Of a DNA stretch of 64,000 nt, positions 8,458-45,550 are shown piece by piece (position 1 is the stretch's first letter; every line of letters begins with the position of its first letter). The stretch lies in assembly GCA_963836955.1 (NCBI GenBank), contig CAWILO010000011.1, positions 491,703 to 555,702 of the forward strand, written 5' to 3'. Both the position numbers and the translations under genes were made by a program. The notes under the pieces were generated by a model, which ran no database searches, was not told the origin of the DNA, and saw only the letters and a program-made list of their open reading frames with translations. This DNA is from an uncultured delta proteobacterium. GTDB lineage: Bacteria; Desulfobacterota; Binatia; Binatales; Binataceae.

Positions 8458-8841
8458 ATGCGAACTGCCAACAAGCACATCCGCCACGGAGTCGGCAGCG
8501 TCCGCCCGTATCTATACGGCCGCCTGGATATGCTGGAACTCGTCAAACGGGCATTCGGCGCGGTGGAACTGGAACACCTGAAGATGGGCAACGGCGCACA
8601 CGTCGAGGCGAAAATCGGCGACTCGATGGTCGTGATGGAAGTCAGCGACCCGCCCCACCCGGGCGCAAAGCCCGCGTCGATTTACGTCTACGTCGAGGAT
8701 GTAGACGACGCCTACCAGCGAGCACTGGCCGCGGGCGCCACCTCGGTGACGGCCCCCGAAAACAAGCCCTACCAGGAGCGCGCCGCCGGCATAAAGGACT
8801 CCTTCGGCAACATCTGGTACATCGCAACGTACACCGGGTGA
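8458..8841 (+). CDS. VOC/glyoxalase (PhnB-like) family protein
   Basis: VRPYL..HVEAKIGDS..YVEDVDDAYQRAL..YQERAAGIKDSFGNIWYI; GAGG RBS upstream. Confidence 0.88.
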   Translation: MRTANKHIRHGVGSVRPYLYGRLDMLELVKRAFGAVELEHLKMGNGAHVEAKIGDSMVVMEVSDPPHPGAKPASIYVYVEDVDDAYQRALAAGATSVTAPENKPYQERAAGIKDSFGNIWYIATYTG

Positions 8842-8897
8842 TCGAAAAAGAGCGCGACCGCAGAACCCCGCATCCTGCTTATTGCCTGGTAGTCGGC

Positions 8898-9043
8898 ACC
8901 TAACCCCTAATCCCTAGGGAAGGGAACCCGATTGCCGCCGACCGAGAGCAAAGTAGTGCGCTGCGCGCAACTTTGCGATTGATACCGGGTGCAGGGGTCA
9001 CTCCTGCCGAGGGTAGTGTGAAACCCACCGCGGGTTTCACATT
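8898..9043 (+). repeat. Intergenic multi-hairpin repeat, family A, copy 1
   Basis: Core GACCGAGAGCAAAGTAGTGCGCTGCGCGCAACTTTGCGATTGA..GTGCAGGGGT..CCTGCC..GTGAAACCCACCGCGGGTTTCACATT is shared with 13041-13195, 14599-14778 and 27126-27370. Confidence 0.95.
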
Positions 9044-9116
9044 TGATTAAGTGATTTACCCTTCCCCTCCGCCGCGCTGGATGCCCTCCGCAAAAAAGCG
9101 TAAGAGAGTAAGCGCT

Positions 9117-10283
9117 ATGTCTTTAAAAGGTAAATGCGCTATCGCCGGGCTCGGCCAGACCCGGATGGGTAAAAACTTCGATCATCCCGGACCGATCGGC
9201 TTCGCTGCCGAGGCCGTCAATCTCGCGCTCGAGGACGCCGGCCTTGAGCGCTCCGACATCGACGGCCTGCTCGTCAATCCCGGGATCACCTGGTTCAACA
9301 ATCCGATGGCGTCGACGTCGCTGCAGAACGCGATGGGCATCCGCGACCTCCGCCTGACTGCGACGATGAACCTCGGCGGCGCGACCGCGGCGGCGATGCT
9401 TATGCATGCCGCTCAGGCTATCGACGCCGGCATGGCCGAGGTCGTCGCCTGCGTGTTCGCCGACGCTCCCCTCCGTCCACCTTCGCCCAAGGGCAAGGAC
9501 GCCGGCTCTGCAGCCTCCTACGGCTTCGCCCAGGGTCTCAACGCGCACTACGGCCAGTTCGGCGTCAACGCTCAGTATGCGTTCGTCGCCCAGCGCCATA
9601 TGTATCGCTATGGGACCACCAACGATCACCTCGGCGCCGTCGCGGTATCCGAGCGCAACTGGGCCAACTTGAATCCCGATGCCCAGTTCCATGACACTCC
9701 GATGTCGATGGCGGACTACCACGCCTCGCGATGGGTGGTTGAGCCGTTCCATCTCTACGACTGCTGCCTGGTTTCCAACGGCGGTCTTGCGGTTATCGTG
9801 ACTTCCGCCGAGCGCGCGAAGACCCTGAAGTGCCCGCCCGTGTACATCCTGGGGATGGGGCAGGGTCATCCCGGCGGCGATCCGCTCGACACGCTGGTTT
9901 CCGGAGCGCCGATCGCCAAAGATACCGCCTTCAAGATGGCTGGGATCAAGCTGGGCGACGTCAACTTCTGCGAGCTCTACGACTGCTATACTTTCACCGT
10001 GCTTGTCACACTCGAAGACTACGGCTTTTGCAAAAAGGGCGAAGGCGGACCCTTCGTCGCCAGCGGCGCTATCGGCCCGAACGGCTCGCTTCCGGTCAAT
10101 ACCGGCGGCGGCCAGCTCAGCTCCTTCTATATGTGGGGGATGACCCCGGTCGCGGAGGCTATCGTGCAGATGCGTGGGGATGGAGGGCGGCGGCAAGTGC
10201 CAAAACACGACGTTGGACTCGTTTCAGGCAATGGCGGTATCCTTGCAACGCACTCAACGCTCGTTTTGGGTAACCAACCGTAG
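9117..10283 (+). CDS. Thiolase-superfamily protein, Ltp2-like (SCP2-type) probable aldolase
   Basis: Start chosen at ATG 9117 (MSLKGKCAIAG). The usual nucleophile-Cys position reads LGGAT; ELYDCYT and NTGGGQLSSFY motifs are present; a DUF35 gene follows. Confidence 0.85.
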   Translation: MSLKGKCAIAGLGQTRMGKNFDHPGPIGFAAEAVNLALEDAGLERSDIDGLLVNPGITWFNNPMASTSLQNAMGIRDLRLTATMNLGGATAAAMLMHAAQAIDAGMAEVVACVFADAPLRPPSPKGKDAGSAASYGFAQGLNAHYGQFGVNAQYAFVAQRHMYRYGTTNDHLGAVAVSERNWANLNPDAQFHDTPMSMADYHASRWVVEPFHLYDCCLVSNGGLAVIVTSAERAKTLKCPPVYILGMGQGHPGGDPLDTLVSGAPIAKDTAFKMAGIKLGDVNFCELYDCYTFTVLVTLEDYGFCKKGEGGPFVASGAIGPNGSLPVNTGGGQLSSFYMWGMTPVAEAIVQMRGDGGRRQVPKHDVGLVSGNGGILATHSTLVLGNQP

Positions 10284-39507: not shown

Positions 39508-40281
39508 TCAAATCGTAATCTTCATACCGTCATAGCCCATTTCCAGCGCAATCTCATCCTCGCGGCTCAGCACTTCGCGCCCCAGGTGCGTCAGCACCAT
39601 TCGACGCACCTTGAACTTGTCGCGATTCGCCGCCAGCAGCGGGTAGTTAAGATGGAACTTCAGATGATCACTCTCGTAGTAGGTGCATTCGCACAGGAAC
39701 AGATCGGCGCCCGCGCTGAACTCCACCAACTCATCATTCCATCCGCTGTCGCCCGAGAAAACTATCGACTTCCCGCCGCCGTCGACTCTTAACGACAGCG
39801 AGATGTCGGGCTTGGTGTGCGGACTGCGAATCGCACTCACCTTGAACTTGCCCAGCCGCGTCGAGCTCTCCGGCTCGAGCACCACGAACTTCAGCTTGTG
39901 CCTGACCTTCTCGAGCTCGAAATGCGGGAACATCGTGCGCATCAGCTGCCACGTCCGCTCCTCGAGCCTGGACGGGCCCGCAATCGTCAGCACTTTTTTG
40001 CGCCGCGTCTCCCACATGTAGTCGAGGATCAAAAACGGCAGTCCCGCGAAATGATCGCCGTGCAGATGGCTGATAAGCAGCAGGTCGAAACTGTCGGTCG
40101 AGACGCCGTTGCTTTTGAGCGCCTGCATCAGGCAGGGCCCCGCTTCCATCAGGATCCGCCCGCCGGGCGCGTCGATTAGATAGCCTGATTGTGAACGGCC
40201 GAAGCTCGCGAACGCATCTCCGGTGCCGAACAGGGTCACGGTCACCGGCTTGCCGTTCGATGCCGTGCGATTCGGATTCAT
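39508..40281 (-). CDS. MBL-fold metallohydrolase (RNase Z/BN-like)
   Basis: FGTGDAF, ISHLHGDHFAG, FSGDSG, LTHL. Confidence 0.88.
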   Translation of the reverse strand: MNPNRTASNGKPVTVTLFGTGDAFASFGRSQSGYLIDAPGGRILMEAGPCLMQALKSNGVSTDSFDLLLISHLHGDHFAGLPFLILDYMWETRRKKVLTIAGPSRLEERTWQLMRTMFPHFELEKVRHKLKFVVLEPESSTRLGKFKVSAIRSPHTKPDISLSLRVDGGGKSIVFSGDSGWNDELVEFSAGADLFLCECTYYESDHLKFHLNYPLLAANRDKFKVRRMVLTHLGREVLSREDEIALEMGYDGMKITI

Positions 40282-40338: not shown

Positions 40339-41289
40339 ATGAAACAGGTAAAAATCGGAGTTGGATTCGGACTTTGGCGGCTCGGGATGCCCCCGGCGGA
40401 AACCATCGCGCGCGTCGCCGAGCGCGCCGAAGATTGGGGCCTCGACTCCTTCTGGCTCTCCGATCATCTGCTCGCACCCTCGCCCGAACTCGACGTTGTC
40501 GCGACCCTGTCGCTCCTCGCCTCGCGCACCTCGCGCATGAAACTCGGCCCGAGCGTGCTGCTGCTCAACCTGCGACACCCCCTGATGGTTGCGAAATCGT
40601 TCGCGTCGCTTGACTACCTGTCAGGCGGCCGGATGGTGATGGCGGTTGGCACCGGCGCCAATCTCGCCGACTATGCCGCCTGCGGAATCCCGCTCGAAGG
40701 ACGCGGCAAGCGCCTCGACGAAGGTATCGAGGTGCTGCGCACCGTATGGCGCGATCGCGTCGCCAGTTATCACGGGCGCTTCTTCAACTTCGACAACGTC
40801 ACCATCGAGCCGCGTCCCGCCGCGCGCACCAACAACGATTTCGGCACGATGGACATCTGGGTCGGCGGCCGCTCCGACGCGGCGCTGAAACGCGCGGCGC
40901 GCCTGGCCGACGGCTTCTTCGCATCGTTCCAGACTCCCGACGAATTCGGCGCCAGCATGGCGAAGATTCGCGACTACGCCGCCGGCTACGGACGCGCCAA
41001 CGCGCACATCGAATCGGGACTTATCCTGCTTTGCCGGATCTCGATGTCGCGCGAGCGCGCACTCGAGGAGATGCGCCCGATGCTCGCCGCGATGGGCCGC
41101 GGCGCGGAAGCGTACCTCGAACGCACTGTTTACGGCTCTCCCGACGATGTCATCGCGCGCCTGGGCGAGTATGTTGCGAAGGGTCTCGACAAGTTTGTAC
41201 TGTGGCCAATCGCGGAACCCGATGCGTGGCCGAAGCAAATCGAACTGGTCGGCCGCGAAATTGCCTCGAACTACGAAAAGGCTGCCTGA
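40339..41289 (+). CDS. LLM-class flavin-dependent oxidoreductase
   Basis: AEDWGLDSFWLSDH, HPLMVAKS..LDYLSGGR, IWVGG..AARLADG. Confidence 0.92.
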   Translation: MKQVKIGVGFGLWRLGMPPAETIARVAERAEDWGLDSFWLSDHLLAPSPELDVVATLSLLASRTSRMKLGPSVLLLNLRHPLMVAKSFASLDYLSGGRMVMAVGTGANLADYAACGIPLEGRGKRLDEGIEVLRTVWRDRVASYHGRFFNFDNVTIEPRPAARTNNDFGTMDIWVGGRSDAALKRAARLADGFFASFQTPDEFGASMAKIRDYAAGYGRANAHIESGLILLCRISMSRERALEEMRPMLAAMGRGAEAYLERTVYGSPDDVIARLGEYVAKGLDKFVLWPIAEPDAWPKQIELVGREIASNYEKAA

Positions 41290-41863
41290 ACAGTTCGCGC
41301 GGACCGCAGCCGCCGTCGCCATCGCGTTCGTCGTTGCAACTTACGCCGGATGCGCCAGCCCTCCGCCGCTCAAAGCTCCACCGCGCATCTTCGCCAGCTC
41401 CGAAGACGTCGAGATCAACTTTCGCGACCGTACATTCGTCCTCGGCAACAACGATCAAATCGCGGAAGTGCGCCCACCCAATTGGCCCAAGGACAAGTAC
41501 CTCAAGCTGCCGTTCTGGTTCGGCGTCAACATCCTGGTGCCGGGAGTCAACGCGCCCAGGGAGGGCGACTTCTATGTCATCAGCGAGGCGACTCTCGAAA
41601 AACTCTTGGACACGCCCGGCGAATGGATGATCGAAGCGGGCAGCTCACTTGTGAAACAGGAAACGGTCTTCATCACGACCCGCACAAAATATCTGACACC
41701 CGGAAAAATCCTGCCTACCATCGTTCAGTACATGGGCAGGCGCGAGTTCAAGCGCCCCGACGGTAAGGTCGTCCAGCTTCCTGTCCTGCGTGAAGTCTCG
41801 TTGCCGATGAAATGGACGCTCGGCGGCAGAATCCCGGCGATATACGCGAGATACACCACATGA
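41282..41863 (+). CDS. Hypothetical lipoprotein, paralog 1
   Basis: Hydrophobic signal with YAGC lipobox; colinear similarity to the next gene; start uncertain. Confidence 0.7.
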   Translation: MPEQFARTAAAVAIAFVVATYAGCASPPPLKAPPRIFASSEDVEINFRDRTFVLGNNDQIAEVRPPNWPKDKYLKLPFWFGVNILVPGVNAPREGDFYVISEATLEKLLDTPGEWMIEAGSSLVKQETVFITTRTKYLTPGKILPTIVQYMGRREFKRPDGKVVQLPVLREVSLPMKWTLGGRIPAIYARYTT

Positions 41864-42477
41864 TTCGGCGCGGCGGGACGATCCTCCTTGCAATCGCGCT
41901 AGCGCTCATCACCGTCGTCGCCGGATGCACTCCCGACAAGGCGCTCGACTTCGGCCCGACTGGCGAGATCACCACGCCGCCCGAGGATCAGATGAGCCGC
42001 GACATCATGCGCGACTTCGCTGGCCGCGATTTCATCCTCGGCAATAACGATCACGAGGCGCATATCAGACTCGCCGAGTGGAAACCCGGCCGCGGCATCG
42101 TCATGCCGTACTGGCTCGGCGTGAATCCGCTCTACCCGGGATTCCTGCGCCCGACCGTCGGACATCTATATGTGATAAGCCAATCGGTGCTGGTCCGCCC
42201 GCTCGGCAACAACGAATACCTGATTCGCGCCGGCTCGAAACTCTTCAAGAGCGACACCGTCTTCGAAGCAACCCACACGCGCTACACAGACACCGGCGGG
42301 ATGCTCCCAACAATAGTCCGCTTCGTAGGCACCCGAGTAATAACAGTCCCAAAAGACGCCCCAGCCACAGGCACAATCACCGAAAAAGTCCCAGTCCTAC
42401 GCGAAGTCTCAATGCCAATGCACACAACCCCAGACCAGGACCTAACAGGCTACGCCAAGTTCGAAGCGGTCAAATGA
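41860..42477 (+). CDS. Hypothetical lipoprotein, paralog 2
   Basis: ATGA overlap with the previous gene; MIRRGG..VVAGC lipobox; shared LGNND, LPTIV and PVLREVS.PM motifs. Confidence 0.8.
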   Translation: MIRRGGTILLAIALALITVVAGCTPDKALDFGPTGEITTPPEDQMSRDIMRDFAGRDFILGNNDHEAHIRLAEWKPGRGIVMPYWLGVNPLYPGFLRPTVGHLYVISQSVLVRPLGNNEYLIRAGSKLFKSDTVFEATHTRYTDTGGMLPTIVRFVGTRVITVPKDAPATGTITEKVPVLREVSMPMHTTPDQDLTGYAKFEAVK

Positions 42478-42588
42478 ACACGCAGCGAAGGCGTACCGCA
42501 GCGCCACCTGATCCGCCGACCGCTTTTCCCCGTTCATCCCTGTGGAAAGATCTGCGAGCGCTAGCTTGAACCGGATTGGGATTTCAGT

Positions 42589-42603
42589 AGTTATAATATA
42601 ACT
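42589..42603. promoter_or_regulatory. Perfect palindrome AGTTATA-A-TATAACT containing TATAAT and abutting the ATG at 42604
   Basis: 7-bp arms; TATAAT at 42592-97 places +1 on the A of the ATG. Confidence 0.75.
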
Positions 42604-43248
42604 ATGAGAATACCAAACGGTGATGAGGTGCTGGTAGACGCGCGACTTATCCTCGAAGTAATCTGCGCGGCGCTGAAGTTCGGTGAGGAGCGCACAAAGG
42701 CTTTCTTCGCAAGAGAGGAGGAACAAACACCTGATCGGTGCTTAACGCACAATTTGGTACGCTTCCACGCAAAGCGGTATTTAGCTTCGGCTGGCCGCGT
42801 AGTTCGCGATCTGGACGCCTCGGAGGACTATGAGCTTGCGCCGCTGGGGAACAATGGCCTTCAAATAGAGACCCAGAAGTACTGCATCCGGATCAGAAAG
42901 GCCGCTAGAGGCCAGCTGCCAGCGGCTGGGTCTGAGGTTCTGGATCGATTCTACGATCAACGAATGTTGCAGTTTCCAAATGCGCTTGCGCAGGAAATCT
43001 TGAGGCTCGTCGTGTTGTGGGACGTTACGGCAGACTACTCGCTTACCACTTTGGCAATAGCTTTGCCGCGTTTCGGGGGCAAAGAGCCGGAAGTCTATTG
43101 GTCCGTGCAAATTCCCATGGACGAAATGCTCGCATCGTTTAGCACTCAGAATGGTGCGAGCGGCGTCGCCGAAGGTGATGACTTACCGATGTCTGTCAAA
43201 GACGATGACGAGCTCAAGAAGGAAAACAAATCGGGTGACGATGATTAA
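42604..43248 (+). CDS. Hypothetical protein, candidate toxin/effector
   Basis: 214-aa ORF, lower GC than its neighbours, acidic C-terminal tail, stop overlaps the start of the next gene. Confidence 0.75.
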   Translation: MRIPNGDEVLVDARLILEVICAALKFGEERTKAFFAREEEQTPDRCLTHNLVRFHAKRYLASAGRVVRDLDASEDYELAPLGNNGLQIETQKYCIRIRKAARGQLPAAGSEVLDRFYDQRMLQFPNALAQEILRLVVLWDVTADYSLTTLAIALPRFGGKEPEVYWSVQIPMDEMLASFSTQNGASGVAEGDDLPMSVKDDDELKKENKSGDDD

Positions 43249-44347
43249 TGGGGAGCGAGTTAGACAAATCCGTGAGCTCTTGGATCTCACCCAAAAGGAA
43301 CTCGCAGGCCGGATCAATGTAGCGCAAGCCGCGATAGCAAAAATTGAGTCAGGGGAGCTCAAACCTTCCGAACAGTTAGTTCGTCAGCTGGCGCTTGCAA
43401 CGGGGTTCCCTGTTGAGTTCTTCCGTAGAGAGGATGGGCCAGATTTTCCCTTAGGTTCACTGCTCTTTCGTGCTCATGCTACCGCAGCGATACGCAGCAG
43501 GACCGAAGCATATAGATACGCCCAACTCGCGTTCGAAATGGCGCAGTCGTTGGCGCAACGAGTCAACTCTCCTTCACTAAGATTACCGCGTCTGTCCGAA
43601 TCGTCATCTGTCGCAGCCACGATAACGAGAGCACAACTCGGATTTCCTCCGGACACACCTATTCCCAACTTAATTAAAGCGGCAGAGTTGGCAGGCGTTC
43701 TGATCCTCAATTTGCCTGTTGAGATCGAACATCGCGATGCCTTTTCGCATTGGGTCGGCGAGCAGGAAACCGCCAAACCTGTGATCTGCGTCTCAGGCGG
43801 AAAAACCGGGGACAGGAGAAGGTGGAGCGTCGCCCATGAGATTGGGCATTTGGTTATGCATCACGCTTTGCATGGGCAGCTCGCCGACATTGAGAAAGAG
43901 GCGAACCGCTTTGCCGCAGAGTTGCTGCTACCTGAAGCGGCCATGCGGAGAGAGATCGTGCCGCCGGTGTCCTTGCTAAGCTTGTCCCGACTTAAGCCGC
44001 GATGGAAAGTGGCGATCCAGGCGCTCACGCGCCGCTGTTACGAACTCGAGATAATTTCTCGTAGACAATACGGCTACCTCTTTGAGCAGATCTCTGCACG
44101 CGGATGGAGACTTCGAGAACCAGCGAACCTCGATTTGCCAATTGAGCGACCGCGCGGGCTCAGGAAGATGGCTGAACTGCTGTATGGTGTGCCAATCAAC
44201 TATGGAAAATTAGCTCGCGAACTCGACTTACCCGCGTCTTTAGTTAGAACGGTACTTGAGGCACACGCTGAGAAGAGCGAGTTCGCTGCCAGAAAGTCAT
44301 TTCCTAATCTTGTCTCTCTGAAGCGCTCTCGCAACGAACGGAGTTGA
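43241..44347 (+). CDS. HTH-XRE + ImmA/IrrE-family Zn metallopeptidase fusion
   Basis: VRQIRELLDLTQKELA..IAKIESG HTH; RRWSVAHEIGH (HExxH); EKEANRFAAELLLP; start chosen at ATG 43241. Confidence 0.93.
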   Translation: MINGERVRQIRELLDLTQKELAGRINVAQAAIAKIESGELKPSEQLVRQLALATGFPVEFFRREDGPDFPLGSLLFRAHATAAIRSRTEAYRYAQLAFEMAQSLAQRVNSPSLRLPRLSESSSVAATITRAQLGFPPDTPIPNLIKAAELAGVLILNLPVEIEHRDAFSHWVGEQETAKPVICVSGGKTGDRRRWSVAHEIGHLVMHHALHGQLADIEKEANRFAAELLLPEAAMRREIVPPVSLLSLSRLKPRWKVAIQALTRRCYELEIISRRQYGYLFEQISARGWRLREPANLDLPIERPRGLRKMAELLYGVPINYGKLARELDLPASLVRTVLEAHAEKSEFAARKSFPNLVSLKRSRNERS

Positions 44348-44393
44348 AAAGACCTGATACCCTCCGATCTGCGGATTCAGGAGAGCGGACCTC

Positions 44394-44812
<419 letters not shown>

Positions 44813-44818
44813 ATTGCC

Positions 44819-45550
44819 CTAGGGCTGAAACATCCAAACTCGCAGTGGGCCTATCGACTCGAAACCCAGCGCACGTGCGTTGCGGAGTTCATCTCCGTGC
44901 TCATATCCGACAATCGGCAAGCCGGGAAATACTTGGCCGATCGTCGCCAGCGACTCCGCGGCGCGATCGCGCATCTGGGCGGCGGGTGCAAAGAAGTTCG
45001 ACCATCCAACAACGCCGTCGCTGCGATTCGCGATCGCCCCGGCGACGATACGGCCATCGCGATAACCGGCGAGCACCGCGACGTCCTTGTTATCGAGTAG
45101 CGCAGGCACGAAAATTCTGTCTTCGCCCGCGTCACCGCCTGCCCGGCTCCACGCGGACTCCCATTCCGCAAGAGCGCGATCGTCCCGCACAACCTCCCAT
45201 CGCGTCGCCTTTCCCTCAGCGGCAACCGCCCCCATCCGCGAAATCGGTAAATAAATCCACTCCGCAGCGAACAACAGCTGGAATCCTCGCGACGCAAGCT
45301 CGAGCATGCAGAAACTGTCTTTGACCGCCCATCCGCGCGGCAGGCGCGCCGCAACCAGCTCATCGGTCAGACCGAGCTGCCGTTGACTGGGCTCCGCCAG
45401 CGTTCCGGCGTTGGGATAAAAGCGCGGAACCTGGCGGCGATTCAGCCACATCTCGTCGTGGAACTCGCCGGGATTCCCATGCGCGGCGCAAACCGCGTCG
45501 CACAACTCGGCATTGTTACGCGCCGCGCGAATGTTTCGCTCGTCCAGCAT
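44819..45550 (-). CDS. Hypothetical protein (possibly GNAT-like)
   Basis: MLDERNIRAARNNAELCDAV..WAVKDSF..GFESIGPLRVW; start overlaps the stop of the upstream methyltransferase. Confidence 0.7.
   Translation of the reverse strand: MLDERNIRAARNNAELCDAVCAAHGNPGEFHDEMWLNRRQVPRFYPNAGTLAEPSQRQLGLTDELVAARLPRGWAVKDSFCMLELASRGFQLLFAAEWIYLPISRMGAVAAEGKATRWEVVRDDRALAEWESAWSRAGGDAGEDRIFVPALLDNKDVAVLAGYRDGRIVAGAIANRSDGVVGWSNFFAPAAQMRDRAAESLATIGQVFPGLPIVGYEHGDELRNARALGFESIGPLRVWMFQP

Follow-up and report, generated by a model that had tools for sequence, protein, structure and literature searches.

A probable RosmerTA-type toxin-antitoxin cassette with a divergent RmrT and a putative operator reaching into the toxin gene in an uncultured member of the Binatales

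RosmerTA is a toxin-antitoxin system in which the antitoxin, RmrA, partners with many unrelated toxins (Ernits 2023). The system shields Escherichia coli from phages, and the deletion of rmrA yielded a construct that could not be transformed, possibly as a result of toxicity (Millman 2022 preprint). The RmrT(D5)/RmrA pair of Gordonia phage Kita likewise acts in phage defense, and its toxin depolarizes the membrane (Ernits et al. 2023). RosmerTA is poorly understood with regard to the sensing of infection by RmrA, the need for its peptidase and the activities of most RmrT toxins. Here we describe a 64,000-nucleotide stretch of DNA, hereafter the window, from an uncultured delta proteobacterium of the Binatales (GenBank assembly GCA_963836955.1, contig CAWILO010000011.1, positions 491,703 to 555,702 of the forward strand), in which a pair of open reading frames (ORFs) on the + strand, occupying 42604-44347, probably constitutes a horizontally acquired RosmerTA-type toxin-antitoxin and anti-phage cassette. 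The first gene, rmrT (42604-43248), encodes a predicted toxin of 214 amino acids, and the second, rmrA (43241-44347), a 368-residue antitoxin/repressor predicted to join a helix-turn-helix (HTH) domain of the XRE type to an M78 zinc peptidase. The two genes share 8 nt, ATGATTAA (43241-43248), in which the stop codon of rmrT and the start codon of rmrA overlap and through which their translation is putatively coupled; this overlap had already been recorded in a preliminary description of the window that was made without database searches.

The assignment of the second gene is firm as far as sequence comparison reaches: its product is a full-length RmrA, with equally firm membership in RosmerTA. 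It matches 14 PADLOC RmrA models, in most cases almost from end to end, with a top match at E=3.6e-68 (residues 1-339 aligned to positions 1-333 of a 363-position model), and it matches phrog_2439 at E=1.1e-74, with CapP and CapH giving only weak, domain-level PADLOC matches. The protein is composed of an XRE HTH, an M78 zinc peptidase and a C-terminal domain. The HTH (residues 4-60; 43250-43420, + strand) is recognized by Pfam HTH_3 (E=4.9e-12, residues 7-60) and HTH_31 (E=3.3e-9) and has sequence matches to solved HTH proteins, while the peptidase (residues 149-266; 43685-44038, + strand) corresponds to the Peptidase_M78 (ImmA/IrrE) family PF06114 (E=4.3e-17, positions 2-122 of 123). Within the latter lies HEIGH (residues 199-203; 43835-43849, + strand), an intact zinc-binding/catalytic HExxH motif that is followed by EKEANRFAAELLLPE, and the E..A..FA..LLLP motif downstream of it is intact as well. 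The fusion of an intact peptidase to an XRE HTH, as proposed in the preliminary description, is thereby upheld. HExxH is found in 9 of the 10 RmrA homologues examined. The RmrA of a locus labeled L015 here (8621-9730, in the Eremiobacterota metagenome-assembled genome CAVZST010000001.1) has HEAGE instead, which drops the second zinc-binding histidine in an otherwise conserved protein; with one homologue carrying a degenerate motif, neutralization may not depend on peptidase activity.

The first gene is assigned to RmrT transitively, because it has no direct match to an RmrT model. Taken alone, it has no match in Pfam, NCBIfam, PHROGs or PADLOC, and a word-indexed search with it returned five relatives only. 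When 1.84 billion cluster representatives were searched with a profile, 684 proteins were retrieved, of which 422 had E<=1e-10 and almost all were 190-230 amino acids long. Among 72 aligned family members, all without a Pfam or NCBIfam match, 58 match PDLC03939, a PADLOC model for RmrT, and do so end to end, as exemplified by P0157 (residues 5-197 against positions 11-207 of 212, E=6.7e-12). All 12 members of one clade match this model, and HHalign joins the clade of the window protein to that clade with a probability of 99.9% (E=1.7e-33, 188 columns). The window RmrT and its nearest clade (P0002, P0004 and P0005) themselves lie below detection by PDLC03939. Because the family matches PDLC03939 and HHalign links the window clade to it, gene 1 is predicted to be a divergent member of this catalogued RmrT family, which amounts to several hundred clusters at 50% identity. 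The toxin, which the preliminary description had attributed to a family that could not be named, can thus be given a name, and the core that it had singled out (NNGL..RIRK..LP..F..Q..LVVLW) falls on the family's most conserved columns. Over 162 family representatives, which served for all conservation values given here, R53, G85 and W139 are conserved in 100%, K99 and P106 in 97% and Q119 in 94%; the conserved polar residues are R53, N83/N84, R96, K99, S110, Q119 and D193.

The pairing of the two genes is strictly maintained. Twelve independent loci extend far enough past the rmrT homologue to be informative, and in all 12 an RmrA homologue (44-80% identity) follows directly downstream, so that the pair is always adjacent, co-oriented and usually overlapping; the expectations that it would prove RosmerTA-like and conserved as a unit have both held. 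The junction consists of an 8-nt overlap in L007 and L019, a 4-nt overlap (ATGA) in L008, L011, L013, L015 and L022 and a 1-nt overlap in L016, and a spacer of just a few nucleotides is found in L020 and also in L001, where rmrA probably starts at GTG. In L018 (3001-3648, Ga0181532_10017709), the rmrT homologue, 70% identical to that of the window, reads TAG at codon 94 in place of TGC (Cys), and the downstream rmrA is intact; the toxin gene may be decaying here, or the stop may stem from a sequencing error.

A different reading would make gene 1 a sensor, an adaptor or regulated cargo and the HTH-peptidase protein a stress switch similar to ImmR/ImmA, DdrO/IrrE or CapH/CapP, given that ImmA, IrrE and CapP have the same M78 domain and that gene 1 contains neither a recognizable enzymatic motif nor a fold match. 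Repressor and protease are, however, fused here instead of being separate proteins, no mobile-element, DNA-repair or CBASS genes come under the control of the cassette, and rmrT is the only constant partner over the 12 loci. Furthermore, the coupling through an overlap, the complementary charges of the two proteins (pI 4.8 for RmrT and 9.9 for RmrA) and the reported failure of rmrA deletion fit a toxin-antitoxin pair, which leaves such a switch very improbable.

Composition and boundaries set the RosmerTA-type cassette apart from the surrounding DNA. The lower GC content noted in the preliminary description is confirmed, as the cassette genes have 0.52-0.56 and the flanks 0.60-0.66, and third-position GC (GC3) is 0.60 in rmrT and 0.545 in rmrA versus 0.65-0.82 in nine neighboring genes, eight of which reach at least 0.72. 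An alignment of upstream DNA from the window with L018, L019 and L020, which are rmrT relatives at 55-70% identity in other contexts, shows similarity beginning at a TGTGGA box (42541-42546, + strand), approximately 64 nt upstream of the ATG, and DNA similarity between the closest loci ends at the rmrA stop codon. Bounded by these two points, the transferable unit would span approximately 42540-44347 (about 1.8 kb). Convincing terminal repeats flanking the cassette were not seen, and no empty site turned up, sister genomes not having been searched. The cassette is thus predicted to be a horizontal acquisition that sits between housekeeping genes.

Locus scans yielded two loci from genomes and seven from metagenomes, and several relatives occur in company that bears on function. 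In L011 (2979-13461), a type III restriction-modification system (N6_N4_Mtase and ResIII) lies upstream of the rmrTA homologue, and an AAA_15/AAA_21 and UvrD-helicase pair resembling Gabija, together with an integrase, lies downstream; the context of L012 was grouped with that of L011 and comprises type III restriction-modification, the AAA_15/UvrD Gabija-like pair and an integrase. L001 (2674-5541) carries an MmeI-type restriction-modification enzyme, and L008 (11271-16096) carries two integrases. The restriction-modification and Gabija-like neighbors speak against the view that the cassette is solely a selfish addiction module, which would kill cells after segregational loss and play no part in phage defense, as does the phage protection conferred by two RosmerTA systems with other toxins. 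That view draws on the position of the cassette, alone among housekeeping genes with no defense genes adjoining, on the premature stop in rmrT beside an intact rmrA in L018, which is typical of addiction-module decay, and on the membership of the toxin in an RmrT family without demonstrated phage defense. Roles in addiction and defense can, however, coexist, and an exclusively selfish module is considered unlikely, though it is the most credible of the alternatives.

The DNA in front of rmrT combines a promoter-like element with an unusual symmetry. A -10 hexamer, TATAAT (42592-42597, + strand), is placed 6 nt before the ATG at 42604, in a leaderless geometry, and a weak -35-like sequence, TTGAAC (42566-42571, + strand), lies 20 nt upstream of it; CTTG at this site is invariant across four close loci, with a spacing of 18-20 nt. 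Within the window, this is the sole perfect instance of TATAAT-N6-RTG. A TATAAT-like hexamer exactly 6 nt before the start is shared by the window, L007, L013, L020, L011, L016 (with a GTG start) and L008, for which the in-frame upstream ATG was chosen as the start on the basis of homologue support, and near-variants are present in L018 (TATAAA), L001 (AATGAT) and L023 (TATTTT). The downstream gene yjbQ has a Shine-Dalgarno-like GGAGAG upstream of its ATG, and leaderless expression therefore looks like a property of the cassette and not of its host.

Superimposed on the -10 hexamer is a perfect 17-nt palindrome, TAGTTATA-A-TATAACTA (42588-42604), the last base of which is the A of the ATG and the arms of which are putative inner operator half-sites. 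It is unique in the window, and none is expected, even at 3 mismatches, from 100 shuffles; a perfect palindrome over TATAAT at the first ATG had been correctly described before, though with a length of 15 instead of 17 nt. The palindrome forms the core of an extended bipartite dyad of approximately 39 bp (42577-42615, centered on A42596, 14 of 19 positions complementary), whose outer arms are TGG (42577-42579) and CCA (42613-42615), the latter being codon 4 of rmrT. The center lies 8 nt before the start codon, and the dyad consequently overlies the -10 hexamer, the start codon and codons 1-4.

This arrangement recurs among relatives that share 27-70% protein identity, in which the position of the palindrome is conserved. 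Perfect palindromic arms of at least 6 bp occur at the start in 8 of 13 loci, compared with 8% of random 70-nt windows, and once the center is fixed at -8, 8 of 10 loci reach 11 or more complementary positions out of 19, a level attained by 0.44% of random centers (mean 5.05). In L013, the whole element is a perfect 39-nt palindrome, TGGTATTTTCATGGTTATA-A-TATAACCATGAAAATACCA, that runs across the ATG and codons 2-4 with 19 of 19 positions complementary. The core varies in a compensatory manner, as TAGGTATA/TATACCTA in L020, CTTATA/TATAAG in L016, ATTCATA/TATGAAT in L015 and GGTTATA/TATAACC in L013. Symmetry clusters at positions 1-8 (TATAAC[C/T]A) and 15-19 (..CCA) from the center, and the outer TGG mirrors the CCA at 17-19 nt to the left of it. 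Nine of 10 loci (the window, L001, L007, L008, L011, L013, L016, L018 and L020) have CCA (Pro) as codon 4, irrespective of genome GC, and the N-terminal M-x-x-P is conserved throughout the RmrT family, with P4 in 84% of the representatives. The CCA arm of the operator probably contributes to this conserved N-terminus, and a DNA-binding site thus appears to constrain the beginning of the toxin. As regards novelty, the TATAAT-N6-ATG geometry, together with a dyad of this size recurring with compensatory changes among relatives, is a new feature of the putative operator.

It could be objected that the palindrome is a mere by-product of an AT-rich -10 region, in which TATAAT followed by ATA is self-complementary and no operator is involved; TATAATATA by itself yields 4-bp arms, and perfect symmetry is weak in L008 and L023. 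The arms, however, run through G/C positions at which compensatory changes are observed (L020, L016, L015 and L013), a second symmetric element (TGG/CCA) lies 17-19 nt from the center with its CCA codon fixed in GC-rich genomes, and the statistics against random centers are strong, all of which makes a fortuitous palindrome highly improbable. As a putative operator, the dyad symmetry must act on DNA, because transcription from the ATG would copy the right arm only. Since the HTH of RmrA is the only DNA-binding domain of the cassette, autorepression by RmrA at the palindrome is the natural inference. The operator site proposed in the preliminary description accordingly stands in its position, which is conserved with compensatory changes, but its extent had been underestimated, as the site is larger and enters the coding sequence. 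In L015, a clearly different operator core coincides with a different predicted recognition helix in RmrA; this co-variation is suggestive only.

Taken together, these features can be assembled into a working scheme. The operon would be transcribed from TATAAT at 42592-42597, with the 5' end of the messenger RNA falling on the A of the rmrT ATG or beside it, and rmrA would be translated by coupling to rmrT via the ATGATTAA overlap. RmrA, as a dimer or higher oligomer, would place its HTH domains on the bipartite dyad, which extends over the -10, the point of transcription initiation, the start codon and codons 1-4, thereby repressing the operon. RmrT would be kept harmless by RmrA, either through binding or through promoted removal, possibly by ClpX/ClpP as reported for other Rosmer systems. 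If RmrA were inactivated or outpaced as a result of phage infection, stress or loss of the cassette, RmrT would arrest the cell.

Structure prediction assigns RmrT a soluble alpha/beta fold. An AlphaFold2 model of moderate confidence built on a 22-sequence alignment (pLDDT 77, pTM 0.75; a second model had pLDDT 66) shows three helices at the N-terminus, a mixed sheet and an acidic tail that is disordered, with pLDDT below 50 at residues 185-211. Foldseek searches with the two models against PDB and BFVD gave nothing at E<1e-3, the family profile found no solved relative among PDB sequences, and inspection of the alignments by eye disclosed no ADP-ribosyltransferase, nucleotidyltransferase, HEPN or Fic/Doc motifs. 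The most hydrophobic 19-mer (residues 9-27, hydropathy 1.67) contains four charged residues (D, R, E and K). A membrane pore former was rejected in view of the predicted soluble fold without a credible transmembrane segment. A PD-(D/E)xK nuclease was also rejected, the best Foldseek matches having E values of 0.017-0.05 and TM-scores of at most 0.32; this identity is further argued against because no core acidic residue is conserved in at least 70% of the representatives.

Two short segments of RmrT may point to its partners. The first, QRMLQF (residues 119-124; 42958-42975, + strand), is a Q-x-x-L-(x)-F segment situated just before a variable-length, low-confidence loop; its wider form is F-Y-x-Q-(Q)-L-x-L-(x)-F, and other clades have QGSLF, QPSLF, QLSLF or QLSLxF. 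The beta-clamp-binding motif reads QL[SD]LF or QxxLxF, and the resemblance of the RmrT segment to it is speculative with respect to function. The second, DDLPMSVK (residues 192-199; 43177-43200, + strand), is a conserved motif in the disordered acidic C-terminal tail with the consensus [DE][DE]-D-L-P-[IL]-x-[FL] (D193 in 91% and L194 in 85% of the representatives). It is similar to DDDIPF, the C-terminal tip of SSB, but does not stand at the C-terminus, and it could serve as a handle for RmrA or ClpX. The beta sliding clamp is targeted by another toxin, SocB. The Rosmer toxin RipA of Streptococcus pneumoniae binds the hydrophobic pocket of the clamp protein DnaN, and ClpX is needed for its neutralization (PMC12795458); in Pectobacteriaceae, the essentiality of rmrA co-occurs with that of clpX (PMC13566846). 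Because of the clamp-like segment, the binding of DnaN by RipA, the ClpX dependence of RipA neutralization and the rmrA/clpX co-essentiality, a clamp toxin is favored among possible targets, and it is tentatively proposed, with low confidence, that RmrT would bind the replication sliding clamp through its Q-x-x-L-(x)-F segment and be removed with the involvement of RmrA and possibly ClpXP. Stated more explicitly, and still rather unlikely in this form, RmrT would be a non-enzymatic replication poison that plugs the hydrophobic beta-clamp cleft with its Q-x-x-L-(x)-F segment, and RmrA would both repress the leaderless operon, at an operator lying within the first four codons, and hand RmrT over for removal via the conserved acidic DLP tail of the toxin.

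Several observations weigh against the interpretation of the locus as a RosmerTA-type defense cassette. Among PADLOC models, gene 1 has no RmrT match at E<=1, and homology of its family to the only RmrT verified in E. coli was rejected (HHalign probability 0.1%), leaving the two unrelated. To our knowledge, no experiment on a toxin of the PDLC03939 type has been published, the family having been catalogued through its association with RmrA, and its predicted toxicity is therefore a matter of guilt by association. There is no recognizable -35 element, and a sigma-70 consensus scan calls no promoter. Three of the 13 loci depart from the leaderless layout, namely L021 and L022, which have Shine-Dalgarno leaders, and L015, which has another geometry; in L022, a palindrome, GCTTAT-TTT-ATAAGC, is still present at the promoter despite the leader. 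The HExxH motif is degenerate in L015. No homologue was detected in phage and plasmid collections by tblastn with two family members or in two viral-contig scans, and the cassette lies outside any defense island in this genome. A RosmerTA-type cassette remains, on balance, the probable reading.

The genes around the cassette are of a housekeeping nature and encode a FabI-like reductase, a metallo-beta-lactamase (MBL)-fold hydrolase, a luciferase-like monooxygenase, two paralogous hypothetical proteins, YjbQ, a methyltransferase and UvrD. As stated in the preliminary description, no integrase is present among the genes within approximately 4 kb on either side; there is no tRNA across the entire window, no Rfam family in the 4-kb region 41500-45500 and, by a consensus scan, no terminator on the + strand past rmrA. 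Directly downstream, yjbQ (UPF0047, 44394-44812) is split over two reading frames, its 5' part running from the ATG at 44394 to a TGA at 44480 and its 3' part (44477-44812) covering Pfam UPF0047 positions 11-117, a pattern suggestive of an assembly error or of a frameshift at about 44455-44475. A yjbQ call on the L024 contig (ENA assembly ERZ25039605) is likewise truncated, at 106 amino acids, and this contig is possibly not independent of the source of the window. Upstream, the tandem, slightly overlapping genes at 41147-41863 and 41812-42477 encode paralogous products without a Pfam match that have the stretches F.LGNND, YVIS, LPTIV and PVLREVS.PM in common. The MBL-fold hydrolase (39508-40281, - strand) has a sub-threshold match to the anti-Pycsar protein Apyc1 (25.6 versus a 50-bit cut-off), which most likely reflects the shared MBL fold only.

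The locus is of practical as well as mechanistic interest. HMM-based defense finders that need both genes may miss this RosmerTA cassette, because its toxin falls below the model of its own family, and the window's RmrT clade would be recovered by a profile derived from the present alignment. A conserved bipartite operator that overlies the -10, the leaderless start and the first four codons would offer a direct handle on autoregulation, the clamp-binding-like segment and the acidic DLP motif suggest candidate partners of RmrT, and the natural variants (the degenerate HExxH of L015 and the nonsense rmrT of L018) bear on which activities are dispensable. If RmrT does plug the clamp, it would have converged on the target of RipA and SocB.

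Compared with described systems, the cassette resembles ImmR/ImmA of ICEBs1, DdrO/IrrE of Deinococcus and CapH/CapP of CBASS in combining an M78 metallopeptidase with an XRE HTH repressor. There, the two reside on different polypeptides and govern a mobile element, a repair regulon or CBASS, whereas a single polypeptide unites them in the window, where the only partner under regulation is a putative toxin and where the cassette adjoins no genes for an integrase, a conjugative element, CBASS or repair. A switch of this type is thus disfavored by the fusion of repressor and protease and by the lack of a regulon under control. The pair of phage Kita also has an RmrA-type antitoxin and a toxin of no known family, but transmembrane regions are predicted for the Kita toxin, and the window RmrT, predicted to be soluble, has no convincing one. 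RipAB (Spr1630/Spr1629) of S. pneumoniae employs an HTH-ImmA fusion as antitoxin, as the window does, and the window RmrA matches the spr1629 family model NF052239 of NCBIfam with 147.1 bits (E=7.3e-43). This score is far below the 335-bit cut-off, and RmrA was therefore rejected as a RipB equivalog, being related to that family without being a member; on the toxin side, RipA targets the DnaN clamp, and the window RmrT carries a conserved clamp-binding-like segment. With respect to RosmerTA, the window protein lacks a direct RmrT profile match, and the cassette has an RmrA profile match, an intact HExxH, profile-profile homology to RmrT and a co-oriented, conserved gene pair. The verified RosmerTA of E. 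coli OLC-716, whose sequences were taken from the supplement of the Millman et al. 2022 preprint, has an RmrT of PADLOC type PDLC03935 (E=1.1e-52), as opposed to the PDLC03939 family of the window. It is likewise a two-gene operon with the toxin gene first, and its RmrA is 29% identical to that of the window over 342 residues (E=6e-38), with the same three-part architecture and with the HExxH and E..A..FA..L.P motifs common to both.

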